A model generated the notes under the pieces. The model saw only the letters and a list, made by a program, of their open reading frames with translations, was not told the origin of the DNA and searched no databases. A DNA stretch of 32,000 bases from an uncultured Nitrososphaerota archaeon (GTDB lineage: Archaea; Korarchaeota; Korarchaeia; Korarchaeales; Korarchaeaceae): contig CAYZRF010000016.1 in the NCBI GenBank assembly GCA_964480775.1, positions 8,929-40,928 of the forward strand, given 5' to 3'. Position numbers and translations under genes: made by a program. Positions 3,639 through 30,342 of the stretch are shown here, piece by piece; positions within the stretch are counted from its first letter, which is position 1; each line of letters opens with the position of its first letter.

Positions 3639-5234
3639 CTAAGTCCTCCTGAGAACCTTTCCAGGCTTTGCCTTTGTATGCTTTTCCCCCTCTACCACAA
3701 TCTCTCCATTGACTAAAACGTACTTAATTCCTTCAGCATACTGGTGAGGATCCAAAAATGTAGCCTTGTCGATAATTCTCTTGGGATCGAAGATAACTAT
3801 GTCCGCAGCAAAGCCCTTCCTTATCATTCCCCTATTCAACAGCCGTAATCTAGTAGCTGGGGCGTTAGTCATCTTTTTTACAGCTTCTTCTAGTGTCAAA
3901 ACATTTCTATCCCTTGAATAGTGTCCTAAGACTCTAGCAAAAGTTCCGTAAGCTCTAGGATGAGGTCTTGTCTGAGATAGGGGACCATATGGTGCAGAGC
4001 AGGAGCTGTCGCTCCCAACACAGGAAAGAGGATGTCTCATCACTCTAAGCAGATCGTCCTCATGCATCCCGTGAATGATGATCCCAACTTTTCCCTCGGA
4101 TCTCAGTAAAAGTTCGAACACGGTTTCGTAAGGATCCAGTTTCCATTCCTTAGACACTTCCGCAACGGTTTTCCCTTGAACTGTCCTATCTGGAGAAAAG
4201 TCTGTTATTCTAATGATGTCATATACTTCCTTATCCATGTAATGCCCTTTCTTTACACTCTCTTCCATGTATTTCCTAATTCTTTCTCTAGTCTCGGGGT
4301 CTGCGAGCCTTCTCAGCATGGCATCAACTCCCCCTTCTTGTGCCCACTCTGGAATAAGGACATCAAGACCTGTGGAGCTTGCAGTGTAGGGATAGAAGTC
4401 AAATGTCACCTCAATCCCTTTTTCCCTAGCTTCCTCAACAATCCTGCACGATATCTTCGTTTTCCCCCAGTTCTTCTTGCCAGAAGCTTTGAAGTGAGAT
4501 ATCTCTACCCTGCATCCTGACTTCTCTCCTATTTCTATGGCTTCTTTTACGGCATCTATAAGCATATCTGACTCTCCTCTTATGTGAGATGCGTACATCC
4601 CTCCATATTGGGAAACGACCTTGCAGAGTTCAATTATCTCATCGGTCTTAGCATAGGAGCTTGGGGGATAGATAAGCCCCGTCGAAAGACCAAAGGCCCC
4701 TGCTTCCATACCTTCTCTTACATACTCTTTCATCTCTTCAAGCTCCTTCTCGTTAGGAGGTCTACGTTCGAACTGGAGAACATTCATTCTTATTGTGCCG
4801 TGGCCAATAAATGGAACGACGTTTATGCTTATGCCATTTTTCTGTAGCCTTTCTATATATTCGGCCATTGTCCTCCAATCAATGGTAACGAGCCCTTTTA
4901 TGTGATCAGCCATGGTTTTTTCAAGATATCTTGCACTCCAATCATTTATAGGAGCAAGAGAATAACCACATTGCCCTATGACCTCTGTAGTAACTCCTTG
5001 TCTAATTTTGCTTTCAGCATATGGGTTGACGAGCAAGCTTATGTCACTGTGTCCGTGCATGTCAATGAATCCAGGAGAAACTACAAGACCTGATGCATCT
5101 ATCTCTATTTCGGGTTTCTCATCCCATTTCATGCCTACTTCAGAAATTATTCCATCAGAAACGTATACATTTGAGTAGAACCAAGGACTTCCGGTTCCAT
5201 CTATAACCTTTCCGCCAACAATCGCTATTTTCAT
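3639..5234 (-). CDS. N-acyl-D-amino-acid deacylase (D-aminoacylase), amidohydrolase superfamily
   Basis: 531 aa. N-terminal beta-sandwich signature IVGGKVIDGTG...DVYVSDGIISEVG, metal-binding GFIDMHGHSD, and the C-terminal return to the small domain (FAADIVIFDP..I.DKATF.DP.QYAEGIKYVLVNGE). Length and layout are typical of D-aminoacylases. Confidence 0.8.
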   Translation of the reverse strand: MKIAIVGGKVIDGTGSPWFYSNVYVSDGIISEVGMKWDEKPEIEIDASGLVVSPGFIDMHGHSDISLLVNPYAESKIRQGVTTEVIGQCGYSLAPINDWSARYLEKTMADHIKGLVTIDWRTMAEYIERLQKNGISINVVPFIGHGTIRMNVLQFERRPPNEKELEEMKEYVREGMEAGAFGLSTGLIYPPSSYAKTDEIIELCKVVSQYGGMYASHIRGESDMLIDAVKEAIEIGEKSGCRVEISHFKASGKKNWGKTKISCRIVEEAREKGIEVTFDFYPYTASSTGLDVLIPEWAQEGGVDAMLRRLADPETRERIRKYMEESVKKGHYMDKEVYDIIRITDFSPDRTVQGKTVAEVSKEWKLDPYETVFELLLRSEGKVGIIIHGMHEDDLLRVMRHPLSCVGSDSSCSAPYGPLSQTRPHPRAYGTFARVLGHYSRDRNVLTLEEAVKKMTNAPATRLRLLNRGMIRKGFAADIVIFDPKRIIDKATFLDPHQYAEGIKYVLVNGEIVVEGEKHTKAKPGKVLRRT

Positions 5235-5327
5235 CTCACTGAGGGCTAAAGGATATTGCTTTAATTCCTTTCTGCTATATTATAGGTCAATCTTTTATGA
5301 TGTGCCTTCAAATAAGGGTAGAGACTC

Positions 5328-6440
5328 ATGGACATTAGCGTCTTAGATTTGGCATCATCTTTAATCTCCATAAATTCTACGAACCCCCGAGCTCTAGAAT
5401 TAGAGATAGCGGATTGGCTTGGGGATGTACTGGAAGAAATGGGATTTACTGTGATGAGGCAGAAGTATAACGACTCAAGAATGAATCTCTTTGCATTTAA
5501 ACGCCCTGAATTAGTCAAACTACTGCTTTGTGGCCACCTTGACACCGTACCTCCAACAGAAGGATGGAGGGGAGATCCCTTTTCCCCTAAAGTCAGAGGA
5601 GGAAAGCTCGTTGGTCTTGGTGCATGCGACATGAAGGGCGCCATTGCCACAATGATTGTTGCGGGCATTGAAGCAATTTCCGAGAACGACGAGGTAGGAG
5701 TTGGCTTTCTTTTCACATCAGATGAAGAAGTAGGAATGTCAGGGGCTAAGATGGCTGCTCCAAGGGTAAAAGACGTGTTCAGGAATTTGAGACTCTGCGT
5801 GATAGGTGAACCAACAGATCTGAGGCTAGTTACTTGCCACAAAGGGTCATTTAAAGCAAGTTTAAAGGTAAGAGGAATTGCAGCTCATAGCAGTATTCCA
5901 GAGACTGGATCTAATGCCATACACCATGGCATAAGGATTCTAAACGAAATAATTGAGCAGGGAATACCTCCTTTAGAACATCCTCTTTTGGGGAAACCAA
6001 CCCTCCAAGTTACAATTGTTAAGGGTGGAATAGCAGAAAACATAATACCAGATAGCTTTGAAGCTAGGATGGACATGAGGCTAATCCCCTCAGAGACGGA
6101 GGAAAGCAGAAAGAGTCTTTTAATGAAAATAGTAAAGGAAGACGCCAATGTCACAATGGAATTTGGTCCTTATTTTCCTCCGTATGAGGCACCGCAACTC
6201 CCTGAAATTGATTTAATAGCAAGAGTAATGGAAAGCATTGGGCTTAATTCAAGGGCTTGTGGAGTTCCTTATATGACAGAGGCCTCAGTTTACTGGATGG
6301 CGGGAATACCTTCTGTGATAATAGGACCTGGTGACATAAAACAGGCTCACAGGCCCAACGAGAGCATTTATGTGAGCAAACTCGCGCAAGCAAAAAAGCT
6401 ATACAAGAACCTTATATCGACCCTTAATGTCCCCCAATAA
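5328..6440 (+). CDS. M20-family metallo-deacylase (ArgE/DapE/LysK type)
   Basis: 370 aa. CGHLDTVP (His ligand), GACDMKG (bridging Asp) and FTSDEEVG (catalytic/ligand Glu pair), with an inserted dimerisation-type domain in the middle. I cannot separate acetylornithine, succinyl-DAP and LysW-lysine hydrolase specificity by eye. Confidence 0.75.
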   Translation: MDISVLDLASSLISINSTNPRALELEIADWLGDVLEEMGFTVMRQKYNDSRMNLFAFKRPELVKLLLCGHLDTVPPTEGWRGDPFSPKVRGGKLVGLGACDMKGAIATMIVAGIEAISENDEVGVGFLFTSDEEVGMSGAKMAAPRVKDVFRNLRLCVIGEPTDLRLVTCHKGSFKASLKVRGIAAHSSIPETGSNAIHHGIRILNEIIEQGIPPLEHPLLGKPTLQVTIVKGGIAENIIPDSFEARMDMRLIPSETEESRKSLLMKIVKEDANVTMEFGPYFPPYEAPQLPEIDLIARVMESIGLNSRACGVPYMTEASVYWMAGIPSVIIGPGDIKQAHRPNESIYVSKLAQAKKLYKNLISTLNVPQ

Positions 6441-6455: not shown

Positions 6456-7313
6456 TTAATCTCCATTAAGGCCAAACATCTCCTTACAAAGGATTCCATC
6501 AAAGACCTTAACCACTCCGCCTTTCAAGTAAAGCTCATCAGTATCCTCAAAAGATACTTCTAAAACTTCTCCTAATTTAGTTATGACTTTAACTTTCCTT
6601 TCTTTGATCTTTCCCTTCAAAAAGCAGGTCAAAGCGCTTGCTGCGACTCCAGTTCCACAACTAAGCGTCTCGTTTTCTACACCCCTCTCATAGGTTCGAA
6701 CTGCTATGGTATCTCTCCCTAGAAGTTTTACAAAGTTAACATTTGTACCTCTTGGTTCGAACGCTTTGTTCCTTCTTATTTCTCTTCCAAGCTTGATGAT
6801 ATCAAGTTTTTCTAGATCCTTAACCTCTACCACAAAATGAGGTACTCCTACCTCTAAATACGTTCCTTCAAGTGTTATTTCTCCCAAATTTATAGTTAAA
6901 GCTTCTTCTATAATTAAGGGCTTCGTGAGTCGAACTTTAACGCTCCTTCCTCCCTCTAGGATTTGTCCCTCAATTACTCCTACGAGAGTCTCAAATCTCA
7001 CGATTTTGCAATCCTTTCTCACAACTTCGCTGTCATATGCAAATCTTATAGCACATCTTGCCCCATTTCCACACATTTCCCCAACAGAACCATTAGAATT
7101 GAAGAACTTCCACTTGAAATGATTGTCTGGGTTATTTGGATCCTCTATCAAGATTAAACCATCAGCGCCGATGCCCGTATGAGGAGCACAGATTTTTCTT
7201 ACAAAGTCGCCTATATCCGTTCTGACTTCTATTAAAAACTCCTGAACTTCCTTTCGCCTGTTATCTATGAGGATGAAGTCGTTTCCTGATCCATGATACT
7301 TGCTGAATTTCAT
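6456..7313 (-). CDS. dapF: Diaminopimelate epimerase
   Basis: 285 aa. Classic N-terminus MKFSKYHGSGNDFILID, first catalytic Cys in NSNGSVGEMCGNGARC and second in ETLSCGTGVAASA. Two-domain length is typical of DapF. Confidence 0.9.
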   Translation of the reverse strand: MKFSKYHGSGNDFILIDNRRKEVQEFLIEVRTDIGDFVRKICAPHTGIGADGLILIEDPNNPDNHFKWKFFNSNGSVGEMCGNGARCAIRFAYDSEVVRKDCKIVRFETLVGVIEGQILEGGRSVKVRLTKPLIIEEALTINLGEITLEGTYLEVGVPHFVVEVKDLEKLDIIKLGREIRRNKAFEPRGTNVNFVKLLGRDTIAVRTYERGVENETLSCGTGVAASALTCFLKGKIKERKVKVITKLGEVLEVSFEDTDELYLKGGVVKVFDGILCKEMFGLNGD

Positions 7314-7495: not shown

Positions 7496-9079
7496 ATGGG
7501 CTTTGGAAAGGATTCAATGAAAGCCGAATCAGCATTTGTGAACGGAGTTATATTCACCCCCTCAGGAAGGGAGGAGGCTTTAGCTGTTTATAAAGGAAGA
7601 ATAATAAAGATAGGGACAAACGAAGAGATAAGATCTTTAGTTGGGCCTGAGACCAAAGTGATGGATCTCAAGGGAAAGACAGTATTACCTGGCTTAATGG
7701 ACGCTCATGTTCATCTCTCTATGTACGGACTTGCTCTCAGTCAGCTAGACCTTAGAGGTGCTAAATCGATAAAGGAAATCAAAGAAGCTGTGAAGGAAAA
7801 GGCATCATCTCTATCCAAAGGAGAATGGATCTTAGGGAGAGGGTGGGATCAAGAGCTATTTGAAGAGAAGCGATACCCGACAAGATGGGATTTAGACGAG
7901 GTCGCTCCAGATAATCCCGTATTCTTGAAAAGGGTTTGTGGCCACATAGCTGTGGCCAACAGCAAGGCCCTCGAGATTGCTTCAATATCAAAAGATACAG
8001 AGGATCCACCGAGAGGTAAAATAGATAGAGATGAAAACGGAGAGCCAACGGGAATCTTAAGAGAATGGGCTTTGGAGTTAATTTATGAGAAAATTCCGCC
8101 TCCAAGTTTAGAGCAGCTAAAAGAAGCCTTAGCAAAGGCTATTAAGGAAGCTGTAAAGAGAGGACTAACCACAATTCACTTCATATGCTCTGATATGTTT
8201 CCTAATGAATTTCGGGCTCTTCAACTCCTAAGAAAGGAGGGAAGATTGCTTTTAAGAATCTATTTAATTCCTCCGTACGCTTTCTTAGAGAAACTAGAAG
8301 AAATAGGCATCTTTACTGGATTTGGAGATAACATGCTAAGGATTGGAGGAATAAAAATACTGGAGGACGGCTCCTTAGGTGGAAGGACAGCAGCACTTGA
8401 GGAACCCTATGCAGACATGCCAGAAAAGAAGGGAATGTTGATTTACTCTCCAGAAGAACTAAAAGAGATGGTTCTAAAGATCCATAAGGCTGGATTTCAA
8501 GCAGCAATCCATGCTATAGGGGATAGGGCCATCAATGTGACCTTGGATGCGATAGAATATGCTATAAAGCATGAACCAAGGGACCACAGGCACAGGATAG
8601 AACACGCATCGGTTGTTAATCCTAAAATAATTGAGAGAATGAGAAAACTTAATGTCGTTGCAGTTTGCCAGCCCCACTTCATATTTACTGATTTTTGGGC
8701 AAAGGACAGGCTTGGACCGGAAAGAGCAAGGTGGACTTATGCCTTGAAATCACTTAGAGAGAATGTTGTTGTGGTTGGTTCCTCTGACTGCCCCGTTGAA
8801 CCTATAGACCCACTAAGAGGAATTTGGGCCGCAGTAACTAGACCGTTTTTGCCCGAAAATGAAAAACTAACAGTTGAGGAAGCCATTGAAATTTACACGA
8901 AAGGAGGCGCTTATGCATCGTTCGAAGAGAATGAAAAGGGATCAATAGAAGAGGGAAAGCTAGCGGATCTTGTAGTGTTATCTGAAGACCCAACAAAAAT
9001 CGATCCTGATAAAATAAAGGACATAAAAGTTGATATGGTAGTGGTTGATGGGAAAATAGTTTACGAGAGAAAAACTTAG
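7496..9079 (+). CDS. Amidohydrolase family protein (Amidohydro_3 / YtcJ-like metal-dependent hydrolase)
   Basis: 527 aa. LPGLMDAHVHL (HxH), HAIGDRA, HRIEHAS, and a C-terminal GSIEEGKLADLVVLSEDP...V..VVVDGKIV closure. The true start may be the ATG at 7517 (M8), because a TATA-like TATTTAAAATA (7486-7496) overlaps the first ATG. Confidence 0.75.
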   Translation: MGFGKDSMKAESAFVNGVIFTPSGREEALAVYKGRIIKIGTNEEIRSLVGPETKVMDLKGKTVLPGLMDAHVHLSMYGLALSQLDLRGAKSIKEIKEAVKEKASSLSKGEWILGRGWDQELFEEKRYPTRWDLDEVAPDNPVFLKRVCGHIAVANSKALEIASISKDTEDPPRGKIDRDENGEPTGILREWALELIYEKIPPPSLEQLKEALAKAIKEAVKRGLTTIHFICSDMFPNEFRALQLLRKEGRLLLRIYLIPPYAFLEKLEEIGIFTGFGDNMLRIGGIKILEDGSLGGRTAALEEPYADMPEKKGMLIYSPEELKEMVLKIHKAGFQAAIHAIGDRAINVTLDAIEYAIKHEPRDHRHRIEHASVVNPKIIERMRKLNVVAVCQPHFIFTDFWAKDRLGPERARWTYALKSLRENVVVVGSSDCPVEPIDPLRGIWAAVTRPFLPENEKLTVEEAIEIYTKGGAYASFEENEKGSIEEGKLADLVVLSEDPTKIDPDKIKDIKVDMVVVDGKIVYERKT

Positions 9080-9181
9080 CATCTTTGTATCAACCACTGT
9101 AAGCTCTAAAGTGGCTATTAGCGAACATCTCCAACTTATGCTCATGGTTATAGGTAATGCTCGAATTCAGCATCAAGGTCG

Positions 9182-10624
9182 ATGATCATGACAGATCTCT
9201 TGATAAAACACGGGTTTCTCCTCACTATGACGGGAGAAGGTGTAGGAATGATAGAGGACGGGGCGATCGCCATAGAAGAAGGAGTAATAGTTGCTGTAGG
9301 AAAGACTGACCAAGTTCTTAAAGAACATCCATCGGCCGACATAGAATACGATGCAAAACATAAGGCTGTGCTTCCAGGTTTTGTGGATGCTCATATTCAT
9401 ACAAGATTGACACTTCTAAGAGGAGAAGGGCAGGATGTACCGGAAATTGAATGGATGCTCAAAACGATGAAACCCTTTAATCGATATATCAGGGAAGAAC
9501 ACATAGTTAAGGGTTCAGCACTCGGAGTCCTAGAAGCGGTAAAATCTGGAACCACTTGTTTTTGCGATATAGGTAGGAATATGTCTCTATTGGCTGAAAA
9601 GGTGTATGAACCATCTGGAGTTAGGGCTGTTCTTGGAGAAACGATAAACGAGATGGGACCAGAGTCTATGAAGGATCCAAACGAGCTCTATGTATTTGAC
9701 AAGGAGGTTGGAGAAGTTTCATTCAAAAAAAGCATAGAACTCATTGAAAAGTGGAACGGAGCATCGAATGGCAGGATTACTTGCTTATTCGCGCCACATG
9801 CAGTGGATATGATGAGCAAAGAACTGCTTCTTAGAGTAAAAGAGGAAGCAGGGCGAAGAGGGCTTATGACCCACATACATGTAGCTCAAGGCGGAAGAGA
9901 GGAGATTCAAGTGAGGAAGAGATATGGAAAATCCGCGGTAGCTTTTCTGGATGAGATAGGCTTTCTAGACTCGAGCATCATTGCTGCGCATTGCCATCAA
10001 ACAACAGACGAGAAAGTAAAACTGATTGCAGAAAAAGGGGTGCATTATGTCAGCTGTCCTTCATCAATAGGGTTAATTGATGGAATAACCCCGCCTTTAG
10101 GTCTCTATTTGATGTTCAGAGGGACCGCTGCAGGTATAGGAACCGATCAGGCTAGTGGAAACAACAGTCATAACATGCTCGTTGAAATGAAGGTAGCAGC
10201 TCTCCTCAACAAGACCAGACATAGAGATCCTACCGTCCTGCCAGCTTGGAAGGTGCTAAGGATAGCAACTATTGAGGGGGCACGTTGTTTGGGACTGGAT
10301 AATATGATTGGATCATTGGAGCCAGGAAAAAGGGCAGACATAGTTATACTCGACTTAAAGAGACCTCATATGACGCCCGTGATAACAGACCCAGTGAGGA
10401 ATATAGCTCCCAACATCGTGTATAGTGCTAGGGGAGATGAAATCGAAACTGTGATAGTAGACGGGAAGGTAATAGTTGAAAACGGCAAAGTTCTGACACT
10501 AGACGAAGAAAAAGTCATGCAAGATGCTCAGAAAGCAGCTGAAGAAGTTACAAGTGCTGCTTCTGATGAATATAAGAAAGCAGGATCAAGGTTAGTCTGG
10601 GCAATGGAACAAAAACTCCTCTAA
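9182..10624 (+). CDS. Amidohydrolase, ATZ/TRZ / MtaD / SsnA-like deaminase-chlorohydrolase subgroup
   Basis: 480 aa. LLIKHGFLLTM...IEDGAIAIEEGVIVAVG, LPGFVDAHIHT, THIHVAQ, AAHC.H, GTDQASGNNSHNM, and GSLEPGKRADIVILD. Substrate cannot be determined from sequence. Confidence 0.7.
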   Translation: MIMTDLLIKHGFLLTMTGEGVGMIEDGAIAIEEGVIVAVGKTDQVLKEHPSADIEYDAKHKAVLPGFVDAHIHTRLTLLRGEGQDVPEIEWMLKTMKPFNRYIREEHIVKGSALGVLEAVKSGTTCFCDIGRNMSLLAEKVYEPSGVRAVLGETINEMGPESMKDPNELYVFDKEVGEVSFKKSIELIEKWNGASNGRITCLFAPHAVDMMSKELLLRVKEEAGRRGLMTHIHVAQGGREEIQVRKRYGKSAVAFLDEIGFLDSSIIAAHCHQTTDEKVKLIAEKGVHYVSCPSSIGLIDGITPPLGLYLMFRGTAAGIGTDQASGNNSHNMLVEMKVAALLNKTRHRDPTVLPAWKVLRIATIEGARCLGLDNMIGSLEPGKRADIVILDLKRPHMTPVITDPVRNIAPNIVYSARGDEIETVIVDGKVIVENGKVLTLDEEKVMQDAQKAAEEVTSAASDEYKKAGSRLVWAMEQKLL

Positions 10625-10653
10625 AAAACGTTTAGAAATGCCACCTTAGTTTG

Positions 10654-10680
10654 GCTATAGTTGTGAAATATAGCTTTGTT
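10654..10680. terminator. Possible bidirectional terminator hairpin between convergent genes
   Basis: GCTATA (10654-10659) and TATAGC (10669-10674) form a 6-bp stem with a 9-nt loop, followed by TTTGTT. It lies in the 66-bp gap between the amidohydrolase and livF stops. The stem is short, so support is weak. Confidence 0.25.
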
Positions 10681-10690
10681 GTCTAGTGCA

Positions 10691-11404
10691 TCAAGACACG
10701 ATGCCTAGATAGAGCTTTCCAAGCTCAGGGTGAGCTAGTAGCTCCTTGGCATCTCCCTCAAACACGACTCTACCACTTACAAGCAGGTAAGCTCTATCTC
10801 CTATTTCAAGTGCCTTTTTCGCACTTTGTTCTACCATAATGATGGTTAAGCCGAGTCGTTCCTTCAATTCTACTATTTTCTGGATAACTTCGAAAGCAAT
10901 CCTTGGAGCAAGATGGGCTGTTGGCTCGTCAAACATCATTACTTTTGGCTCCATGATAAGAGCCATTGCCATCGCGAGCATTTGTCTTTCTCCTCCACTT
11001 AACGTCCTGGCTTTCCTTGGCATATAGTGCTTAATGCTGGGAAACACATCAAGAGCCATCTCCAATCTCTTTTCAAACTCATCTTTGTTTTTTATAAGGT
11101 AGCCAGCCATTATGAAGTTTTCTTTGACTGTTAGATTTGTAAATGTGCTTTGAAGTTGTGGTAGATAAGTAATTCCTATCTTTGCCCTTTCATGTGCGGG
11201 AACAGACGTTATCACACTATCTCTAAACTTAATTTCACCAGAGTATATGTCAGTTAACCCCATTATTGTTTTTAGCAAAGTTGATTTCCCACTTCCATTT
11301 GGTCCCACTATTACAGTGATCTCTTCAGGATTTGCAACAAAGTTTACGTCATAAAGGACGTGGATCTTACCATACCCTGCATTTAACAAATTTGTTTCGA
11401 TCAT
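10691..11404 (-). CDS. livF: Branched-chain/hydrophobic amino-acid ABC transporter ATP-binding protein (LivF type)
   Basis: 237 aa. Walker A GPNGSGKST, signature LSGGERQMLAMA, Walker B MMFDEPTAHLAP, and the C-terminal ELL.HPEL.K.YLG motif typical of LivF. Confidence 0.85.
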   Translation of the reverse strand: MIETNLLNAGYGKIHVLYDVNFVANPEEITVIVGPNGSGKSTLLKTIMGLTDIYSGEIKFRDSVITSVPAHERAKIGITYLPQLQSTFTNLTVKENFIMAGYLIKNKDEFEKRLEMALDVFPSIKHYMPRKARTLSGGERQMLAMAMALIMEPKVMMFDEPTAHLAPRIAFEVIQKIVELKERLGLTIIMVEQSAKKALEIGDRAYLLVSGRVVFEGDAKELLAHPELGKLYLGIVS

Positions 11405-11412
11405 GCTTTCAC

Positions 11413-12168: not shown

Positions 12169-12191
12169 TTCTGGCCTATTCGAGAAGATCG

Positions 12192-12202
12192 AAATTTATA
12201 AG
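12192..12202 (-). promoter_or_regulatory. TATA-like element upstream of livG (internal promoter)
   Basis: Plus-strand AAATTTATAAG (minus strand CTTATAAATTT) sits 24-34 nt upstream of the livG ATG (12168), consistent with a near-leaderless archaeal transcript. The same 11-mer recurs at 13702-13712. Confidence 0.35.
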
Positions 12203-12298
12203 CCTTCCTCTCCTACCACCGGCGAGGCCATGATAGGAAAACCTATACAATCAATTACTAAAAAGATTCAAGATAAATTTTCCTAAGTTTAGAGTTTT

Positions 12299-13709: not shown

Positions 13710-13722
13710 AAGTTTTCCCTAA

Positions 13723-20925: not shown

Positions 20926-20939
20926 GAGGTGGTGATTGT

Positions 20940-21914: not shown

Positions 21915-21926
21915 GAAGGGAGGACC

Positions 21927-22853: not shown

Positions 22854-23815
22854 AGAACTTGTCATTACTTGAAGTTAACAACTTGAAGACCTACTTCTAC
22901 ACTCTTAGAGGAGTTGTAAGGGCTGTTGATGGGATTAGCTTCCACATAGATGAAGGTATGGCTTTTGGTCTTGCAGGTGAGTCTGGATGCGGTAAATCTA
23001 CAACAGCTCTGTCAATAATGGGCCTAATAAAAGATCCTGGAAAGATTGTGGATGGAGAAATAGTCTTTGAGGGGGAGGATCTTCTAAAAAAGACAAAAGA
23101 GGAGCTAAATCAAATAAGATGGAAGAGAATATCCATGATATTTCAAGGAGCGATGAATGCATTTAATCCAGTGCACAGGGTTGGAGATCAGATAGTAGAA
23201 GCAATACTATATCATGAGAACATCACAAGAGAGGAAGCATGGGAGAAGGCTGAAAAACTCCTTGAGATGGTGGGTATAGATCCCTCTCGAGCCAAGAATT
23301 ATCCTCACGAGTTTAGTGGCGGAATGAAGCAAAGAGCGATGATAGCCATGGCCCTAAGTTGCAATCCAAAACTTGTCATAGCTGATGAGCCCACTACAGC
23401 CTTAGACGTGATAGTTCAAAAGCAGGTGCTCGATCTCATGAAGGAATTACAGAAGAAGCTAAAACTTTCAATAATGCTGATAAGCCACGATTTATCGGTA
23501 ATTGCTCAAATGTGCGATTCGGTTGCCATCATGTACGCTGGAAAAATTGTGGAGTACGCAGATGCTATATCTCTTTTCAAAGAACCCCAACATCCGTATA
23601 GCAAGGGCCTAATTAACTCATTTCCAAACATCCTTAACCCAGGGAAGAAACCTGAAAGCATTCCAGGGCAGCCACCTTCTCTTATCAACCCGCCCCCTGG
23701 CTGTAGATTTCACCCAAGATGCCCCTTTGCAACAGATAAGTGCAGAGAAGTCGAGCCTCACCTAGTTAACATCGGAAACAAGCATTTTGTTGCATGTCAT
23801 TTGATAGGTGGTTAA
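22850..23815 (+). CDS. Peptide ABC transporter ATP-binding protein (OppD/DppD type) with C-terminal Cys-rich oligopeptide-ATPase domain
   Basis: 321 aa. GTG start overlaps the upstream stop (GTGA). Walker A GESGCGKST, signature FSGGMKQRAMIA, Walker B LVIADEPTTALD, C-terminal HPYSKGL...PPGCRFHPRCPFATDKC...FVACH. Confidence 0.9.
   Translation: MKNLSLLEVNNLKTYFYTLRGVVRAVDGISFHIDEGMAFGLAGESGCGKSTTALSIMGLIKDPGKIVDGEIVFEGEDLLKKTKEELNQIRWKRISMIFQGAMNAFNPVHRVGDQIVEAILYHENITREEAWEKAEKLLEMVGIDPSRAKNYPHEFSGGMKQRAMIAMALSCNPKLVIADEPTTALDVIVQKQVLDLMKELQKKLKLSIMLISHDLSVIAQMCDSVAIMYAGKIVEYADAISLFKEPQHPYSKGLINSFPNILNPGKKPESIPGQPPSLINPPPGCRFHPRCPFATDKCREVEPHLVNIGNKHFVACHLIGG
23684..23754 (+). repeat. Copy 1 of a 71-nt perfectly identical segment shared by the two Opp ATPase genes
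   Basis: ATCAACCCGCCCCCTGGCTGTAGATTTCACCCAAGATGCCCCTTTGCAACAGATAAGTGCAGAGAAGTCGA is identical at 23684-23754 and 24675-24745. It encodes INPPPGCRFHPRCPFATDKCREVE. Flanking conserved residues (e.g. HFVACHL) differ at synonymous sites. Confidence 0.95.
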
Positions 23816-24806
23816 AATGGATCCTCTCATAAGAGTTGAAGGCCTCAAAAAGCTCTTTCCAGTGAGAAAGGGATTACTTTCGATGATATTTTCCAGAAAG
23901 GCCGAGTATGTACATGCTGTCGACGGAGTGAGCTTCACAATCTCTAAAGGAGAGATCTTCGGGCTAGCAGGTGAGTCTGGATGCGGCAAGACGACAACTG
24001 GAAGGCTCCTTCTAAGGCTTGTAGAGCCAACCGAAGGGAGTGTCTACTTTGAGGGGGAAGATATTTTCTCTCTAAGTGGCAGAGAGTTGATGAGGAAGAG
24101 AAGAGAGATGCAGATGATATTTCAAGATCCTTACAAATCTTTAGACCCAAAGAAGACAGTAAAAGACATCATAAATGAACCCCTTTCTATCCATAAAATC
24201 GGAAAAAATAGAAGGGAAAAACTGGAAATTATATATGAGATGCTAGAAGCCGTGAAACTAACGCCACCAGAGGACTATATTTTCAAATACCCCCACGAAC
24301 TAAGTGGAGGAGAGAGGCAGAGGGTTGCAATTGCTAGAGCAATCATACTCAAGCCCAAGTTTATTGTGGCCGACGAGCCTGTTTCAATGCTTGATGTATC
24401 GATAAGGGCCTCCATTTTGGATTTAATGGTCGAATTAAAGGATAAGTTCAACCTTACATATTTGTACATAACACACGATCTATCCGTAGCAAGTTATTTG
24501 TGCAACAAGCTGGCAATAATGTATCTCGGAAAATTGGTTGAGCTTGGAAATACCTTAGATCTGGTAAAAGACCCTCTTCATCCTTACACCAAAATGTTGA
24601 TCTCGGCTGTTCCAGTACCCGATCCGACTTACAAGAGAGAAGGGATTAAGATAAGAGGAGAAGTAGGAAATCCGATCAACCCGCCCCCTGGCTGTAGATT
24701 TCACCCAAGATGCCCCTTTGCAACAGATAAGTGCAGAGAAGTCGAACCTGATTTTAATGAGGTAAAGGATGGGCATTTCGTAGCCTGTCATTTATTTCAA
24801 AGCTGA
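23808..24806 (+). CDS. Peptide ABC transporter ATP-binding protein (OppF/DppF type) with C-terminal Cys-rich domain
   Basis: 332 aa from GTG 23808. The more likely start is ATG 23817 (MDPLIRVEGLKK), 5 nt after GGTGG (23807-23811). Walker A GESGCGKTT, signature LSGGERQRVAIA, Walker B FIVADEPVSMLD, C-terminal HPYTKML...PPGCRFHPRCPFATDKC...FVACH. Confidence 0.9.
   Translation: MVKMDPLIRVEGLKKLFPVRKGLLSMIFSRKAEYVHAVDGVSFTISKGEIFGLAGESGCGKTTTGRLLLRLVEPTEGSVYFEGEDIFSLSGRELMRKRREMQMIFQDPYKSLDPKKTVKDIINEPLSIHKIGKNRREKLEIIYEMLEAVKLTPPEDYIFKYPHELSGGERQRVAIARAIILKPKFIVADEPVSMLDVSIRASILDLMVELKDKFNLTYLYITHDLSVASYLCNKLAIMYLGKLVELGNTLDLVKDPLHPYTKMLISAVPVPDPTYKREGIKIRGEVGNPINPPPGCRFHPRCPFATDKCREVEPDFNEVKDGHFVACHLFQS
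24675..24745 (+). repeat. Copy 2 of the 71-nt identical segment
   Basis: See copy 1. The first mismatch falls at 24746 (A, against G at 23755). Confidence 0.95.
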
Positions 24807-24869
24807 TTCGTGGATTTTATCTGAAGAAACCAACTGTTACAAGGATAAACTCACATAACTTAGAGGAAG

Positions 24870-24882
24870 AAATAATTAATTA
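24870..24882 (+). promoter_or_regulatory. TATA-like box for the aminotransferase operon
   Basis: AAATAATTAATTA is centred about 25 nt upstream of ATG 24901, which fits a leaderless archaeal transcript. It lies in the 91-nt gap after the Opp operon. Confidence 0.3.
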
Positions 24883-24897
24883 TCAGAGTTTTCAGAT

Positions 24898-26256
24898 TTG
24901 ATGCAATCTCCTGAAGGTCCGAGAAGTAAAAAGGTTGTTGAGAGAGATAGTAAGGTTTTCTCACCCGCTGACAGAATAAGATATTACTCCTTAGTTGTCT
25001 CAAAGGCAGAAGGCTCTAAGATCTGGGATGCAGATGGAAGAGAATACATAGATTTCCTTTCAGGTGCGGCCGTTACGAATACTGGACATAGACATCCTAA
25101 AGTGGTTGAAGCTATAAGAAAACAGCTTGACAGGTTTATTCATGGCTGTTCTATTTACATGTATTATGAAGAGGTTGTTAAACTTGCAGAAAAACTTACA
25201 GAGATCACTCCAGGAGACTTCCCAAAGAAGGTCGCATTTGGTTTAAGTGGTTCCGACTCAAACGATGGAGCCATTAAGTTGGCCCGAACAGCTACCGGAA
25301 GAACAAAAATAATGTCATTCATAGGGTCCTATCATGGGACTACTTTTGGAGCTCTAAGTGCTTCAGCCATTTCTCTGAGGATGAGAAGGAAGGTGGGTCC
25401 ATTACTTCCAGAATTCTACCACGTTCCTTTTCCAGATTGTTACAGATGTTACTTTGGACACGAGCCACCTTGCAATATGCAGTGCCTTAAATACATTGAG
25501 ACACTTTTTGACATGTTTATACCTCCAGAAGAGGTAGCAGCAATACTTTTTGAGCCCATTCAAGGAGATGCTGGAATTATAGTCCCTCCAGATAGTTTCC
25601 TCCCGAGACTGCAAGATATATGCAAAAAACACGGAATTTTATTCATCGACGAAGAGGTCCAGACAGGCTTCGCTAGAACTGGTAAGATGTTTGCTGTAGA
25701 ACACTGGAACTTAAGCCCAGATGTAATTCTCTTAGCAAAGGCAATTGCCTCAGGAATGCCTCTAAGTGCTGTGGTGGCTAAAGCAGATCTTATGAAGTGG
25801 GAGGCTCCCCTAAACTTCTTCACAACTCAAGCCAATCCCCTGTCCTGCGTGGCAAGTTTAGCTACAATTGAGGTGATACAGGAAGAAAGACTTGCACAAA
25901 GAGCTGAAAAGCTAGGAAGGAAGGTCATGGAACATTTCAACAGCCTAAAAAAGGAACACAAATTAATAGGAGATGTAAGAGGAAAAGGTCTTCTGATAGG
26001 TATCGACTTGGTCAAGGATAGAGAAAGCAAGGAGCCAGATAGAAAAGCAGCTCTTAAGATATGCTGGAGGTCCTGGGAAAACGGATTGGTTTTAGCTACA
26101 TTAGGAAGATTCGGAAATGTCCTAAGAATAGCGCCTCCTCTTACAATTAGAGAAGAAGAACTTGAAAAGGCCCTAGAAATAATAGATAATGCAATTTCAG
26201 ACGTGGAAAAGGGTAAAGTCCCAGATAATGTTCTTAAGCAAATGGGGGGCTGGTAA
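24898..26256 (+). CDS. Class-III (fold-type I) PLP enzyme, GABA/ornithine aminotransferase family; could be an aminotransferase or an amino-acid racemase
   Basis: 452 aa (TTG 24898, or more likely ATG 24901). GLSGSDSNDGAIKLAR, FEPIQGDAGIIVPP, DEEVQTGFARTGKMFA, and the PLP-Lys context VILLAKAIASGMPLSAV. Also carries an unusual four-Cys patch, PDCYRCYFGHEPPCNMQC. Confidence 0.85.
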   Translation: MMQSPEGPRSKKVVERDSKVFSPADRIRYYSLVVSKAEGSKIWDADGREYIDFLSGAAVTNTGHRHPKVVEAIRKQLDRFIHGCSIYMYYEEVVKLAEKLTEITPGDFPKKVAFGLSGSDSNDGAIKLARTATGRTKIMSFIGSYHGTTFGALSASAISLRMRRKVGPLLPEFYHVPFPDCYRCYFGHEPPCNMQCLKYIETLFDMFIPPEEVAAILFEPIQGDAGIIVPPDSFLPRLQDICKKHGILFIDEEVQTGFARTGKMFAVEHWNLSPDVILLAKAIASGMPLSAVVAKADLMKWEAPLNFFTTQANPLSCVASLATIEVIQEERLAQRAEKLGRKVMEHFNSLKKEHKLIGDVRGKGLLIGIDLVKDRESKEPDRKAALKICWRSWENGLVLATLGRFGNVLRIAPPLTIREEELEKALEIIDNAISDVEKGKVPDNVLKQMGGW

Positions 26257-26706
26257 ATGATAACTCCAGAATTCTTTGATTTGGAACTCTATGCAATTTA
26301 TAAGGCTATATTTGAGCTCATAGGAGAAAGAGCTTGGGATGTTGTTTGGAGATCGGGCGAGATTATAGTTAATGAACTCTGGGAGAAATTGAAGCTAGAA
26401 GAAGCTGATGTGTTTGAAAGTCTCAGAAAACTAGCTTCTTTTCTCAGCTCTTCTGGCTATGTCAAGGAGATAAAGGTTGAAAAGAAAGGAGAAAACATGG
26501 TAGAGTACATAATGTACGAACCTGTTATAGCTGAAGGCGCAAGGAGACTCATAAAGGAAGGGATGGTACCGCCGCACGTCTCAACCAGTTTGATGTTTGC
26601 TATCTTGAAGAGAAAAGGATATAGGGCTGAGATGGTAGGAGAGCCTGAATTCTTGAAAGATGGAAGGGTTGTTGAGAAATGGAAGCTAATACGCATTCAG
26701 GAGTAG
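26257..26706 (+). CDS. Hypothetical 149-aa cytosolic protein (weak resemblance to V4R-type small-ligand-binding domains)
   Basis: The ATG directly abuts the upstream TAA (26254-26256), and the 3' end overlaps the next gene by 28 nt. No TM segment and no Cys. The helical N-half followed by a beta-rich half (VKEIKVEKKGENMVEYIMYEP ... GRVVEKWKLIRI) is only loosely reminiscent of V4R domains. Codon usage looks the same as its neighbours. Confidence 0.5.
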   Translation: MITPEFFDLELYAIYKAIFELIGERAWDVVWRSGEIIVNELWEKLKLEEADVFESLRKLASFLSSSGYVKEIKVEKKGENMVEYIMYEPVIAEGARRLIKEGMVPPHVSTSLMFAILKRKGYRAEMVGEPEFLKDGRVVEKWKLIRIQE

Positions 26707-27944
26707 AAAAAAAGGATCCGAGAAGCTATTTCACTCATCTAAAATGTCTAAGCTGCGGAGCAACCTATGGGAAAGAGGAAATTTATCTCTGTCCAAGATG
26801 TGGCGGCTTCTTAGACCCAAAATATGACTACGACGGAATAGCAGAAGCATTTCGTATTGAGGATCTCCCCTTTAGAGAAAGAAGTATGTGGAAATGGAGG
26901 GAATTCATGCCAGTTGATAGGCCAGTAAGTCTAGGGGAAGGAGACACTCCTCTAATAAAATGCGAGAGGATCAACGAAGAAGTTGGTGTAAGAAACCTTT
27001 ACCTGAAGGATGAGACAGTTAATCCAACAGGCTCCTTAAAGGACAGATCCACATCTGTAAACGTAAGTGTTGCAAGAGAGTTAGGAGTAGAAACTGTTGC
27101 CATAATATCTACGGGAAATGCTGCAGCATCTCTGGCAGCATATGCTGCAAGAGCTGGTCTGAGGGCAGTGGTTATGGTGCCTGAAACAACTCCAGACGCG
27201 AAAGTCGCCCAAGCTTTGGTTCATGGAGCTCTCGTCTTGAAGATTAGGGCAGGATCCATGGCCGAGTTTTATGAGCTATATGAGGAGGCATGCTCGAATT
27301 TCGGCTGGATGAACTCTGTTGGTGGGGTTAATCCCTACAGAAACGAGGGTAAAAAGACTTATGCGTATGAACTGAGCGAAGCTTTCGATTGGGATCCTCC
27401 TGATTGGTTCATCATGCCAATGGCTGGTGGAAACGCTTTGATAGCTGCATGGAAGGGGTTCAAGGAACTTTTGTCCCTCGGGCTCATCTCAAAGGCACCA
27501 AAGCTGGTAGGGGTCCAACCAAAAGAGTGTGCATCGACCGTTAAGGCCTTTAGAGAAGGCAAAGAGGTTGCAAGTCCGATATTACCAGGTAAGACCATAG
27601 TTACAAGCTTACTTGTCTCGAATCCTGGACCAAAAAGCGCTTTGGTTCTCAAAGCAATTAGGGAATCAAATGGTACATGCGATGATCCGTCTGATGAAGA
27701 AGTCCTAGAGGCCATGAAGTTACTTGCTAAAGAGGGAGTATTCTCAGAACCTGGAGGGGCAATAAGCTTGGCGGCAGCAAAGAGGCTCCTGGACCAAGGG
27801 GTAATAGACCTATCCGAGAGAGTTGTATGTCTAGTGACAGGAAGCGGCTTTAAGGACATGAAATCGGTTAAAAACATCTTGATTAAGCCCATTTTGGCTG
27901 AACCTACTCTAGATTCCATTGAAAAGGCCATAAGGGGCCGATGA
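26679..27944 (+). CDS. Threonine-synthase-like fold-type II PLP enzyme with N-terminal zinc ribbon
   Basis: 421 aa. CLSCGATYGKEEIYLCPRCGG zinc ribbon, EGDTPLIK, PLP-Lys motif NPTGSLKDRS (canonical short ThrC has SFKDRG), STGNAAASLAAYAARAGL, NPYRNEGKKTYAYEL, LVTGSGFKD. Overall ThrC architecture is present, but several motifs are diverged. Confidence 0.75.
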   Translation: MEANTHSGVEKKDPRSYFTHLKCLSCGATYGKEEIYLCPRCGGFLDPKYDYDGIAEAFRIEDLPFRERSMWKWREFMPVDRPVSLGEGDTPLIKCERINEEVGVRNLYLKDETVNPTGSLKDRSTSVNVSVARELGVETVAIISTGNAAASLAAYAARAGLRAVVMVPETTPDAKVAQALVHGALVLKIRAGSMAEFYELYEEACSNFGWMNSVGGVNPYRNEGKKTYAYELSEAFDWDPPDWFIMPMAGGNALIAAWKGFKELLSLGLISKAPKLVGVQPKECASTVKAFREGKEVASPILPGKTIVTSLLVSNPGPKSALVLKAIRESNGTCDDPSDEEVLEAMKLLAKEGVFSEPGGAISLAAAKRLLDQGVIDLSERVVCLVTGSGFKDMKSVKNILIKPILAEPTLDSIEKAIRGR

Positions 27945-28041: not shown

Positions 28042-29031
28042 CTAAGAAACTGCTTCCTCTTCGATTATGAGTTTCCTAGATTCTGCATCAAGCATAGCTC
28101 TGCATCCCATTGGGAGAGTAAGCCTATAAGTGCCATGTCCACAAGCCACTCCATAGATAGAAGGTTTATTTGAGAGCTTTTCCCATAAGACTTCCTCTAT
28201 CGATGGACCAGTCCTCTTAAGGATGTTTGTGAACTCTCCAACTACGAAACCAGCCGCTTTCTTGATTATTCCCCCAAGTTCGAGCTGAGTAAGATAGCGA
28301 TGGACCCTATATGGCGCCTCGTCTACGTCCTCTATCACAACTATTCTGTTCATAGCTTCGATCTGATATGGAGTCCCCATTAACGAAGAGATCAACGTTA
28401 GATTTCCTCCTATAAGAGCCCCTTTTGCTACTCCATCGCCAATCGTTTGAATGTAGGGAGCGCCATAAGGGTTATTTATCTCTCCAATTGGTTCGGGATG
28501 GCTAAGAACATCAAGCAAGTGTTCTAGGTTACCCTTAGCTTGCTCAGGTCTTTCAACCCATAGAATATCCCCTATCATTGGCCCATGAAACGTTATGAGG
28601 TTTGAAAGCTGATTAAATGCTATCAAAAGAACGGTGATATCGCTGAAGCCCACAAAAGGCCTTGGATTTTCCTTTATCAGATCGTAATCCAGCAGGTCGA
28701 GGAGTTCCATACACCCATATCCGCCTCTTGCGGATATGATGGCTCCTATTTCCTCATTCTCAAACATGTCCATCAGCTCTTTCGCTCGTTCCTTAGCTTT
28801 AGCTGAGAAGAAGCCTGTCTTGGCGAGTTTCTTTAAGTTTCTTCCTGGAACTACCTCATGACCAAGCCTTCTAAGTTCTTCTATTCCTCTTTTCACTGCT
28901 ACTAGATCCGCCGCACCAGCCGGACATACAATTCCGATTTTAGCCCCTTTCCTAAGTCTTGGAGGTCTTATCAACTTTCGCCAAAAGGACATGTCTTTAA
29001 CCCTTATATTCTTATGGAGAAAGAGAGACAA
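28042..29031 (-). CDS. LD-carboxypeptidase (peptidase S66, LdcA/MccF-like)
   Basis: 329 aa from TTG 29031. ATG 28992 (MSFWRKLIRPPRLRKGAKIGIVCPAG) is a plausible alternative start. KIGIVCPAG, ISARGGYG, the nucleophile motif VGFSDITVL, the acidic VIEDVDE, and CGHG near the C-terminus reproduce the S66 Ser-Glu-His layout. Confidence 0.8.
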   Translation of the reverse strand: MSLFLHKNIRVKDMSFWRKLIRPPRLRKGAKIGIVCPAGAADLVAVKRGIEELRRLGHEVVPGRNLKKLAKTGFFSAKAKERAKELMDMFENEEIGAIISARGGYGCMELLDLLDYDLIKENPRPFVGFSDITVLLIAFNQLSNLITFHGPMIGDILWVERPEQAKGNLEHLLDVLSHPEPIGEINNPYGAPYIQTIGDGVAKGALIGGNLTLISSLMGTPYQIEAMNRIVVIEDVDEAPYRVHRYLTQLELGGIIKKAAGFVVGEFTNILKRTGPSIEEVLWEKLSNKPSIYGVACGHGTYRLTLPMGCRAMLDAESRKLIIEEEAVS

Positions 29032-29040
29032 TGAAGGAAT

Positions 29041-30342
29041 ATGGAGAGAAAACCGTTAGATGGAAGAGACAACTTTAGCATGAATGAGCGAGGTCATCTT
29101 TGCATGCGTGAACATGATTTAGTAGATCTCGCTGATCGTTTTGGGACCCCCCTCTATGTGGTTGATGCACAGAGAATAAGGGAAAATTATAGGAGGTTTA
29201 AGAAAGCTTTCAGCTCTTATCCACGAGTTCTCATTGCATATGCATATAAAGCAAACTCTAATTTAGCGGTATGCTCTATCCTCAAAAAAGAGGGAGCTGG
29301 AGCAGATGTGGTTTCGGGAGGGGAGCTATTTATAGCTCTATCTATTGGAGTGGACCCGGAGAATATAGTTTTCGATGGGGTGAGCAAAGGCGAAGATGAG
29401 CTACGGATGGCGATTGAGAACGGGATTGGGGCAATAAATGTTGAATCACTACAAGAACTTAGAAAAATCGAATCCATAGCAGCAGAACTTGGGAGAATAG
29501 CGAATATAGGCATAAGACTGAATCCTGATGTACCAGCTGAGACTCACCCTCATGACGTTACGGGGGTAAAATCATCAAAGTTTGGATTGGACTTTGAAAA
29601 TGCACTCAAGGCATGTGAGATAGCAAAGGGGATGGAACATGTTAAGATTAAGGGAATTCACATTCATATAGGTTCACAGATTACGCAAGTTGACTCTTTT
29701 AGGAGAGCAGTTTCAAAGCTCTTCGACTTCGCATCTAAACTATGGGAGAAGGGCATAAAACTAGATTACTTGGACTTTGGAGGCGGAGTTGGGATAACCT
29801 ATACAGGTTCCAGAAAAGACTATATCGAGGAATATGCGGATGCTTTGTTGGAAATAACTCTAAGTAAGATAGAGGAACTCAACCTTGGAGAGCCTAAACT
29901 TATTTTTGAGCCAGGAAGATACATTGTAGCTGACTCTTCTATCCTTCTGACAGGAATAAACTACGTAAAGGAAATCTTTGGGAAAAAATGGGTTCTCGTA
30001 GATGCTGGGATGAATGATTTCATTAGGCCTGCCATGTATGGTGCAGTTCATGAGATAGTATCGGTTAACAAGCCTGAAGGAGGAGAAAAAAGATATAATG
30101 TGGGAGGTCCTGTCTGTGAGAGTTCTGATGTCTTTGGAAGAGGCGTAAAGCTTCCAGAAATGGAAGTTGATGATCTTCTAGCGATCCTTGACGTTGGAGC
30201 TTATGGAATCTGCATGTCTAGTCAGTATAACTCAAGACCAAGACCAGCTATGGTCCTAGTTGACGGTTCTAAGGTTAGCGTAGTTAGAGAGAGGGAAACG
30301 TATGAAGATTTAATATCAAAAGACAGAATACCTGATGACTGA
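29041..30342 (+). CDS. lysA: Diaminopimelate decarboxylase
   Basis: 433 aa. FGTPLYVVD, PLP-Lys in YAYKANSN, HIHIGSQI, DFGGGVGITY, EPGRYIVADS, GPVCESSDVF and DVGAYGICMSSQYNSRPRPA are the canonical LysA (fold-type III) motifs. The start could also be the ATG at 29080. Confidence 0.9.
   Translation: MERKPLDGRDNFSMNERGHLCMREHDLVDLADRFGTPLYVVDAQRIRENYRRFKKAFSSYPRVLIAYAYKANSNLAVCSILKKEGAGADVVSGGELFIALSIGVDPENIVFDGVSKGEDELRMAIENGIGAINVESLQELRKIESIAAELGRIANIGIRLNPDVPAETHPHDVTGVKSSKFGLDFENALKACEIAKGMEHVKIKGIHIHIGSQITQVDSFRRAVSKLFDFASKLWEKGIKLDYLDFGGGVGITYTGSRKDYIEEYADALLEITLSKIEELNLGEPKLIFEPGRYIVADSSILLTGINYVKEIFGKKWVLVDAGMNDFIRPAMYGAVHEIVSVNKPEGGEKRYNVGGPVCESSDVFGRGVKLPEMEVDDLLAILDVGAYGICMSSQYNSRPRPAMVLVDGSKVSVVRERETYEDLISKDRIPDD

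Follow-up and report, generated by a model that had tools for sequence, protein, structure and literature searches.

Introduction

Much organic carbon and nitrogen is stored in bacterial peptidoglycan (murein), a material with a high content of D-amino acids and diaminopimelate (DAP), and bacteria recycle or catabolize its peptides through systems such as MppA-Opp, LdcA, MpaA, YcjG, and PepD of Escherichia coli and ykfABCD of Bacillus subtilis. How archaea might gain access to this pool has mostly been a matter of guesswork from single marker genes. This article concerns a block of genes in a 32,000-nucleotide stretch of DNA from an uncultured archaeon (contig CAYZRF010000016.1 of GCA_964480775.1, positions 8,929–40,928; hereafter the window), in which a serine peptidase of the S66 LD-carboxypeptidase family lies among an Opp-class importer and the DAP enzymes DapF and LysA. 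It is proposed, at a probability of roughly 0.5, that this is a conserved Korarchaeota neighborhood that imports and dismantles murein-type D-amino-acid peptides and is joined to the enzymes leading from DAP to lysine. The block would provide a concrete and testable pathway that links a transporter with S66, D-aminoacylase-like, and racemase-like enzymes, DapF, and LysA. If the proposal is true, it would help to explain why Korarchaeum has long been seen to depend on other members of its community, and would offer candidates for two non-canonical catalysts, namely a DapE-like M20 enzyme acting on γ-D-Glu-DAP and an amidohydrolase acting on L-Ala-D-Glu.

The block resembles bacterial murein-peptide catabolism in that an S66-family enzyme with an intact catalytic triad is found beside an Opp-class importer and all of the enzymes are cytoplasmic. 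Unlike the bacterial system, the window lacks MpaA (M14), YkfC (NlpC/P60), and YcjG/YkfB (MR_MLE), with only a DapE-like M20 enzyme and an amidohydrolase as candidates in their place. Bacterial recycling also differs in that the korarchaeal host has no murein, so the substrate would be foreign, and in that DapF and LysA are linked here, with products that would feed lysine rather than wall resynthesis. Judged by its genes, the block appears to work like bacterial murein-peptide catabolism but fails two defining features and so is not a strict member; it is a plausible archaeal variant.

Among archaea, the broad-specificity amino-acid racemase (BAR) cluster PH0137-PH0138-PH0140 of Pyrococcus horikoshii pairs a racemase with an adjacent transporter so that free D-amino acids can be used, under the control of the FFRP regulator DARP (PMC13628549). 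As in that hyperthermophilic, peptide-using archaeon, a class III pyridoxal phosphate (PLP) gene of the racemase subgroup adjoins an importer in the window, but here the importer is an Opp-class ATP-binding cassette system to which peptidases and DAP enzymes are attached. The window contains no Pfam match to the Lrp/AsnC (FFRP) family, and a V4R-like protein of 149 amino acids (aa) lies at the place expected of a sensor. S66 genes of Pacearchaeota (DPANN) have already been read as serving to feed on bacterial peptidoglycan, and here too a murein-free archaeon carries S66, the scavenging of dead walls being proposed in the earlier case (PMC11537232); whereas that case concerns a single gene, the window holds a conserved multi-gene neighborhood, in another phylum, that is tied to DapF and LysA. 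Archaeal D-amino-acid metabolic genes have also been reported in a survey of trench microbiomes (PMC12363236). Within an incomplete coverage of the literature, no account was found of a conserved archaeal block uniting S66, D-aminoacylase, racemase, Opp, DapF, and LysA. A preliminary description of this DNA had known of no such pathway in archaea, which within this coverage holds for the block as a unit but not for peptidoglycan feeding through S66, already proposed for Pacearchaeota (PMC11537232).

The block is also like the lysine operons of the DAP pathway (argD/dapC, dapE, dapF, lysA) in carrying bona fide DapF and LysA with M20 and class III genes nearby. Unlike in those operons, the class III enzyme is racemase-like, the M20 protein scores under the DapE cutoffs, no upper-pathway gene is present, and the neighbors include S66, D-aminoacylase, YtcJ, and Opp genes.

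Conservation of the Gene Block Among Korarchaeota

The six-frame open reading frames (ORFs) of the window were scanned with Pfam and NCBIfam, and PDB sequence searches were added; family negatives in the window cover ORFs of at least 100 aa. Every family named in the preliminary description was found by these searches where it had been placed, although ThrC and a conserved 149-aa gene, both in the middle of the block, had been overlooked. Its view of the genome as archaeon-like was correct, the relatives of S66, LysA, and DapF at 68–84% identity carrying the name Candidatus Korarchaeota archaeon. Contigs that are nearly identical derive from sediment of Great Boiling Spring and from the metagenome of a hydrothermal vent. 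Exact-sequence searches with S66 and LysA of the window gave no match; an identical DapF is found on a 2.6-kb Logan contig.

Fifteen genes form a conserved core that a second Korarchaeota lineage (lineage B, loci L087 and L169–L171) keeps uninterrupted and in unchanged order, with 68–99% aa identity per gene. The order there is LLM, DinB, DUF3795, the D-aminoacylase-like amidohydrolase (AH3), M20, DapF, YtcJ, the solute-binding protein SBP5, OppBCDF, class III, the 149-aa gene, ThrC, S66 (−), and LysA, directly contiguous, and a single 93-kb contig of this lineage holds DapF, S66, and LysA. Co-localization in relatives, which the preliminary description had set as a test, is thus found for the core; the genes outside it lie in a strain-specific segment treated at the end. 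In the left part of the window the orientation is AH3 (−) and M20 (+), divergent, M20 and DapF (−), convergent, and DapF and YtcJ (+), again divergent. A tight nine-gene co-directional run follows from SBP5b to ThrC with gaps of −28 to 91 bp, and S66, which lies between ThrC and LysA, is read in the other direction; this position is kept in lineage B and in a Great Boiling Spring contig (L001).

Identity to lineage B is mosaic, at 68% for DapF, 75% for LysA, and 83% for S66, with 88% for the D-aminoacylase-like gene, 81% for M20, and 91% for the YtcJ-like gene (all three at conserved positions in L169–L171). From SBP5b through the 149-aa gene the proteins are 96–99% identical (97–99% for the importer genes), and the tract at 18762–27002 has ~95% DNA identity, compared with 75–80% for the left flank. 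This mosaicism suggests recent recombination or transfer of a cassette of Opp and racemase genes between Korarchaeota populations.

Two further loci vary the theme. L001, otherwise 95–96% identical to the window, carries at 12788–14092 a HemL-like class III enzyme where the window has the racemase-like gene, as does a third Korarchaeote of 49.6% G+C (L085, 6933–8234). The HemL-like enzyme is non-orthologous (PRK00062, 422 against a cutoff of 398) and shares 26–27% identity with the class III protein of the window. Remnants of an SBP5a-like gene persist at the class III PLP position in L001. In L085, a gene for a PBP4-type S13 (beta-lactamase-like) DD-peptidase (1–1093) directly flanks the Opp operon; for this enzyme, as for S66 and the D-aminoacylase, a murein-free cell contains no obvious substrate of its own.

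The S66 Peptidase and its Linkage to LysA

The S66 gene (28042–28992, −; Pfam S66 and S66C) encodes a cytoplasmic serine peptidase whose triad, Ser117/Glu221/His286, is invariant in an alignment of 25 sequences. Its start is probably Met14 of an ORF that reaches 29031, a homologue with 98% identity (P0001) being 316 aa long. If so, the divergent start codons of S66 and LysA are only 48 bp apart (28993–29040), and the two genes would share a very compact promoter region. In PDB searches the protein aligns to LdcA (6uuk, 1.5e-32, 116 bits) in one uninterrupted stretch and to MccF (104 bits) in two. Identity among homologues falls in steps from 84% to 46% and to ~40% in bacteria, a patchy distribution that is consistent with transfer.

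The linkage of S66 to LysA is found in other genomes. Among the matches listed from a profile search of genome contigs with the S66 alignment, which were mostly bacterial and included no Korarchaeota genome, 80 loci served as background; LysA is present in three of them, against 0.25–0.85 expected by chance, and peptide-type SBP5/Opp genes stand side by side with S66 in ~20 of the 80, an arrangement common in bacteria. The nearest S66 group outside Korarchaeota (45% identity) is on archaeal-looking Logan contigs (L003/L004), where the cluster comprises a beta-lactamase-like gene, two MR_MLE genes whose best model is the L-Ala-D/L-Glu epimerase, SBP5, S66, NlpC/P60, a PBP4 DD-carboxypeptidase, an M20 gene of the ArgE/DapE family, and LysA. 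The LysA of these contigs is of archaeal type, and they carry an Nre gene, which we take to be an archaeal marker. A metagenome-assembled genome of an uncultured “bacterium” (L066) has S13, LysA, two P60 genes, S66, and MLE together, LysA stands beside S66 in two more loci (L058 and L077), and in a Nanoarchaeota metagenome-assembled genome (L008) S66 is paired with an MR_MLE gene.

The L003/L004 and L066 clusters are like the window in having S66 within a few kb of LysA, each protein 45% identical to its window counterpart, and L003 further has an ArgE/DapE M20 and SBP5. Unlike them, the window has no PBP4 DD-carboxypeptidase, NlpC/P60, or L-Ala-D/L-Glu-epimerase homologues, and they in turn lack DapF, D-aminoacylase, the racemase-like enzyme, and ThrC. 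The adjacency of S66 and LysA thus recurs independently, inside clear murein-peptide clusters, and this linkage in other genomes points to DAP-containing substrates. In a cultured archaeon, Picrophilus oshimae, an M20 gene and an S66 gene overlap, with HemL, HemC, and HemD after them (L174, 6848–11712); its M20 is unrelated to that of the window.

DapF, LysA, and the M20 Enzyme

DapF, the diaminopimelate epimerase (6456–7313, −), scores 255.7 with TIGR00652 (cutoff 114.65) and has intact Cys81 and Cys219 motifs. Its nearest relatives outside Korarchaeota are Aquificaceae (Aquifex, Hydrogenobacter, and Thermocrinis) at 53–58% identity, and no archaeal names beyond Korarchaeota-like ones occur among the 120 best matches shown. 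Aquificota have meso-DAP (mDAP)-type walls and share hot springs with Korarchaeota, and the pattern of relatives points to an inter-domain transfer of DapF from Aquificota-like, co-resident hot-spring bacteria. The dapF loci of Aquificae have no M20, amidohydrolase, or Opp neighbor, so DapF was probably acquired singly, and a joint transfer of M20 and DapF from Aquificota is ruled out on the same ground. DapF sits among importers and hydrolases, as the preliminary description had held. Among the matches listed from a metagenome-contig search (identity of at most 46%), 80 dapF loci of other organisms include none with a D-aminoacylase-like, YtcJ-like, SBP5/Opp, or S66 neighbor, lysA being a neighbor in 17 of them and an argD-like gene in six.

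LysA, the diaminopimelate decarboxylase (29041–30342, +), scores 511.7 with TIGR01048 (cutoff 297.9), with intact PLP-lysine and substrate motifs. Its nearest non-Korarchaeota relatives are in Hydrothermarchaeota, Hadarchaeales, and Methanococcales (45–52% identity), so that it is of archaeal type and apparently vertically inherited.

The M20 protein (5328–6440, +; Pfam M20 and M20_dimer, ArgE/DapE family) retains its catalytic residues and falls just under the cutoff of TIGR01910 (211.7 against 217.6). It passes no equivalog model, the dapE models included (PRK13009, 164 against 284; TIGR01246, 145.6 against 361.8), and its best PDB matches are ArgE (7rsf) and DapE (7uoi) at ~1e-35. It is proposed as a candidate γ-D-Glu-DAP (N-acyl-DAP) amidase; alternatively, it may be a biosynthetic DapE or ArgE.

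No dapA, dapB, dapD, dapL, or asd gene is present in the ~32 kb of the window, as previously described (no DHDPS, DapB, Asd, DapD, or DapL match), nor in ~55–60 kb of non-redundant related Korarchaeota loci, which are parts rather than whole genomes. A reading of the block as salvage alone depends on dapA, dapB, asd, and dapL being absent genome-wide. The preliminary description had placed the DAP enzymes outside a biosynthetic operon; no upper-pathway gene accompanies them in the block, but LysA belongs to a conserved unit with ThrC that looks biosynthetic.

A Proposed Route for Murein-Peptide Salvage

The remaining enzymes of the core are compatible with the handling of D-amino-acid peptides. 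The product of the gene at 3639–5234 (−; Pfam Amidohydro_3) matches N-acyl-D-glutamate deacylase (3gip, 1.9e-85) and D-aminoacylase (1m7j, 1.3e-83) in the PDB, with the metal-ligand motifs HGH, QCG, SHIR, SHFK, and GSD (HxH, Cys, His, His, and Asp) visible. It falls under the cutoff of PRK09061 (228 against 340), and its proposed substrates are L-Ala-D-Glu or further N-acyl-D-amino acids. A YtcJ-like metal-dependent amidohydrolase (7496–9079, +; Amidohydro_3, 434 bits) has an uncharacterized hydrolase (3icj) as its best PDB match. The class III PLP enzyme (24898–26256, +) passes PRK08360 (623.9, cutoff 608), is tentatively assigned to the archaeal amino-acid racemase subgroup, and is closest in the PDB to the broad-specificity amino-acid racemase 9wrf (458 bits), isoleucine 2-epimerase (410), and alanine/serine racemase (406), with gamma-aminobutyrate aminotransferases at ~300 bits. 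Other models are not passed (LeuMetRace, 488.5 against 800; Ala/Ser racemase, 417.8 against 639), and the enzyme is not of the ArgD/DapC type (TIGR00707, 308.8 against 410); by these comparisons it groups with characterized racemases, not with ArgD or DapC.

In every Korarchaeota locus the gene for the 149-aa protein (26257–26706, +) is found after the class III gene and before ThrC; the protein has no Pfam match. A single-sequence AlphaFold2 model (pLDDT 65) gave Foldseek matches to Bet3 (TRAPP), YslB, and H-NOX (E ~5e-4, TM-score ~0.5), a probable V4R/Bet3/H-NOX-type fold, and the protein may have a V4R-type small-ligand-binding fold and be a sensor or regulator of the operon.

The importer is encoded by SBP5b (19101–20894), OppB (20940–21914), OppC (21927–22853), OppD (22850–23815), and OppF (23808–24806), all on the + strand and assigned by Pfam. 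SBP5b (SBP_bac_5) has an N-terminal signal or transmembrane segment and a C-terminal Pro/Thr-rich linker with a transmembrane anchor, and it matches MppA (3o9p) at only 2.3e-21. What had been called a peptide importer is indeed of the Opp/Dpp class, but by its sequence peptides are no more than a candidate ligand, SBP5b being nearest to sugar binders among solved structures, and SBP5b-OppBCDF might carry glycan-containing or sugar substrates.

We infer each step of the following route from the families of the proteins, their intact active sites, the conserved gene order, and the recurring linkage of S66 and LysA. The Opp-class importer (SBP5b-OppBCDF) would take up stem peptides, e.g., L-Ala-γ-D-Glu-mDAP-(D-Ala), from which the cytoplasmic S66 enzyme would remove the C-terminal D-Ala. 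The γ-D-Glu-DAP amide would then be cut by the DapE-like M20 enzyme, standing in for bacterial MpaA or YkfC, an assignment made because this bond is chemically close to that of N-succinyl-DAP, the substrate of DapE. In a fourth step, L-Ala-D-Glu would be split by the N-acyl-D-Glu-deacylase-like amidohydrolase, which would replace the YcjG/YkfB epimerase and dipeptidase, and the D-amino acids released would be racemized by the BAR-like class III PLP enzyme. DapF would equilibrate LL- and meso-DAP, and LysA would decarboxylate meso-DAP to L-lysine. An inserted segment, particular to this strain, would add an L-lysine 6-dehydrogenase (LysDH) homologue for onward oxidation and an amino-acid importer of the Liv type. 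De novo lysine synthesis may be a second role of DapF and LysA, which the model allows.

Several points weigh against this proposal. The gene block is not a single operon: it comprises at least seven transcription units of alternating orientation, several of them divergent and convergent. The S66 protein scores under the LdcA equivalog cutoff (PRK11253, 146.6 against 378) and is as near to MccF as to LdcA in the PDB search, so far as its sequence goes a member of the family, though not demonstrably an orthologue of E. coli LdcA. No MpaA (M14), NlpC/P60, or MR_MLE homologue was found in the window by Pfam or by tblastn with the P60 protein of L003, and steps three and four consequently lean on chemical analogy alone. 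The M20 genes linked to S66 in different genomes cannot be taken as one orthologous group, identity being 26% (as between the M20 of L003 and that of the window) or undetectable. The best PDB matches of SBP5b are the Vibrio chito-oligosaccharide and Thermotoga mannoside binders, followed by AppA and DppA. The scheme does not account for ThrC, and M20, the class III aminotransferase-family enzyme, DapF, and LysA correspond to the last four steps by which DAP is made through acylated intermediates. The conserved unit of class III PLP, 149-aa, ThrC, and LysA genes looks like a housekeeping biosynthetic operon: in L085 it is kept although S66 is missing from the ThrC–LysA site, and both L001 and L085 keep it with a HemL-like class III enzyme. 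The salvage reading of the preliminary description is partly supported: it retains the conserved core and the S66–LysA linkage, but has to contend with the strain-specific nature of one segment and with the ThrC–LysA unit.

A bolder form of the proposal, which is doubtful, is that Korarchaeota run a dedicated murein stem-peptide pathway with non-bacterial chemistry (an M20 amidase, and an amidohydrolase for the epimerase route). In it, DapF from Aquificota together with LysA would yield lysine from wall DAP, lysine would depend partly or wholly on bacterial neighbors, and the same pathway would extend to other archaea, to judge from L003, L008, and Picrophilus.

Alternative Explanations

The strongest competitor, a tentative but serious one, is ordinary lysine and threonine synthesis beside nutrient importers, with S66 and the D-aminoacylase-like gene as passengers. 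M20 would then act as DapE, the class III enzyme as DapC/ArgD, and ThrC in threonine synthesis, while lysC, asd, dapA, dapB, and an acyltransferase gene or dapL, i.e., the upper DAP pathway, would lie elsewhere. DapF, LysA, and ThrC (26679–27944, +), a threonine synthase with an N-terminal Zn-ribbon, all score above equivalog cutoffs (for ThrC, PRK08197, 333.9 against 303, and TIGR00260, 216.9 against 167.1, with Aquifex ThrC 2zsj at 2e-62), and ThrC would imply a cellular supply of aspartate semialdehyde and homoserine. The conservation of the ThrC–LysA unit, without S66 in L085, the archaeal and apparently vertical character of LysA, and the frequent adjacency of bacterial dapF to lysA and argD-like genes point the same way. 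An ancestral reconstruction of Korarchaeota (bioRxiv 10.1101/2023.09.28.559970) reports that the common ancestor of Korarchaeum and Fumariihydrokora had “expanded” its lysine-biosynthesis genes, which also favors biosynthesis. On the other hand, the class III enzyme is racemase-like rather than ArgD-like, M20 passes no DapE equivalog model, and the dapA, dapB, dapD, dapL, and asd genes are unseen in the window and related sequence searched. Biosynthesis would also give no reason for the lasting attachment of S66, of the D-aminoacylase-like gene, and of the L085 DD-peptidase in a murein-free organism, or for the recurrence of S66–LysA inside murein-peptide clusters elsewhere. Were it true, the block would amount merely to an unusual gene arrangement.

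An unlikely alternative is the general use of D-amino acids, N-acyl-amino acids, and peptides, e.g., racemized or non-ribosomal peptides from hot-spring necromass, by the importer and the D-aminoacylase-like, M20, YtcJ-like, and racemase-like enzymes, with S66 trimming some other C-terminal residue and DapF and LysA adjacent for unrelated reasons. The racemase-like and D-aminoacylase-like assignments would fit such a role, as would the action of the P. horikoshii BAR cluster on free D-amino acids, an S66 sequence that leaves the specificity between the LdcA and MccF types, and a window without any glycan-processing or γ-D-Glu-DAP-specific enzyme. It has to contend with two DAP-specific enzymes, DapF and LysA, inside the block, DAP being essentially a bacterial cell-wall and lysine-pathway metabolite, and with the repeated S66–LysA linkage elsewhere, which indicates substrates that contain it.

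That S66 is an MccF-like immunity or detoxification enzyme against aminoacyl-nucleotide antibiotics, unrelated to its neighbors, is highly improbable: MccF structures nearly equal LdcA in score and some close homologues are named MccF-like, but the alignment to LdcA chains is in one stretch and that to MccF in two, lineage B and L001 share the site between ThrC and LysA, and murein-peptide genes and Opp accompany the homologues in L003, L066, L008, and many bacteria.

The Strain-Specific Segment and Flanking Genes

Positions 9103–18761 of the window form a clean 9.66-kb indel relative to lineage B (blastn of the window against L170), and the genes it carries are therefore strain-specific additions. 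They include a TRZ/ATZ-type amidohydrolase (9182–10624, +), LivF (10691–11404, −), LivG (11413–12168, −), a LivK-like solute-binding protein (12318–13670, −), LivH (13723–14766, +), LivM (14763–15839, +), SBP5a (15842–17413, +; SBP_bac_5, best PDB match DppA), and a saccharopine-dehydrogenase-family protein (17434–18609, −). The preliminary description had counted the Liv importer, the second SBP5, this amidohydrolase, and the saccharopine-dehydrogenase-family gene as parts of the block, and all of them fall outside the conserved unit; the first of these genes does belong to the amidohydrolase family it had been given, but its TRZ/ATZ type is that of a deaminase, not a peptidase. No convincing flanking repeats or mobile-element signature were found around the segment, no integrase was seen, and the window contains no tRNA. 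The DppA-like SBP5a gene is fused into the LivHM operon.

The saccharopine-dehydrogenase-family protein is a homologue of LysDH, its best PDB match being 3ABI (1.8e-50), the L-lysine 6-dehydrogenase of P. horikoshii (PMC10413350). A polyamine reading of this gene and LysA, as carboxynorspermidine dehydrogenase (CASDH) and decarboxylase, was rejected: the protein fits 3ABI far better than CASDH, and the score of LysA is 511.7 with the lysA model but 50 with nspC.

Upstream of the D-aminoacylase-like gene, the Pfam and NCBIfam map gives DUF4139 (18–1283, +), a luciferase-like oxidoreductase (1295–2260, +), DinB_2 (2323–3039, −), and DUF3795 (3207–3638, +). ORFs at 5261–5842 (−), 4176–4520 (+), 7779–8135 (−), 19775–20248 (−), 22121–22618 (−), and 27359–27931 (−) were discarded as spurious because they overlap confirmed genes, the first having no Pfam family match. 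Downstream of LysA, L001 has an extra gene (7720–8556) for an AP_endonuc_2 protein (a xylose-isomerase-like TIM barrel) that is not in the window (~30420–30430). Two tandem ORFs for small membrane proteins of 112 and 111 aa, without a family match, occupy 30455–31133 of the window and are kept beside LysA in L001 and L085 at 78–95% aa identity.

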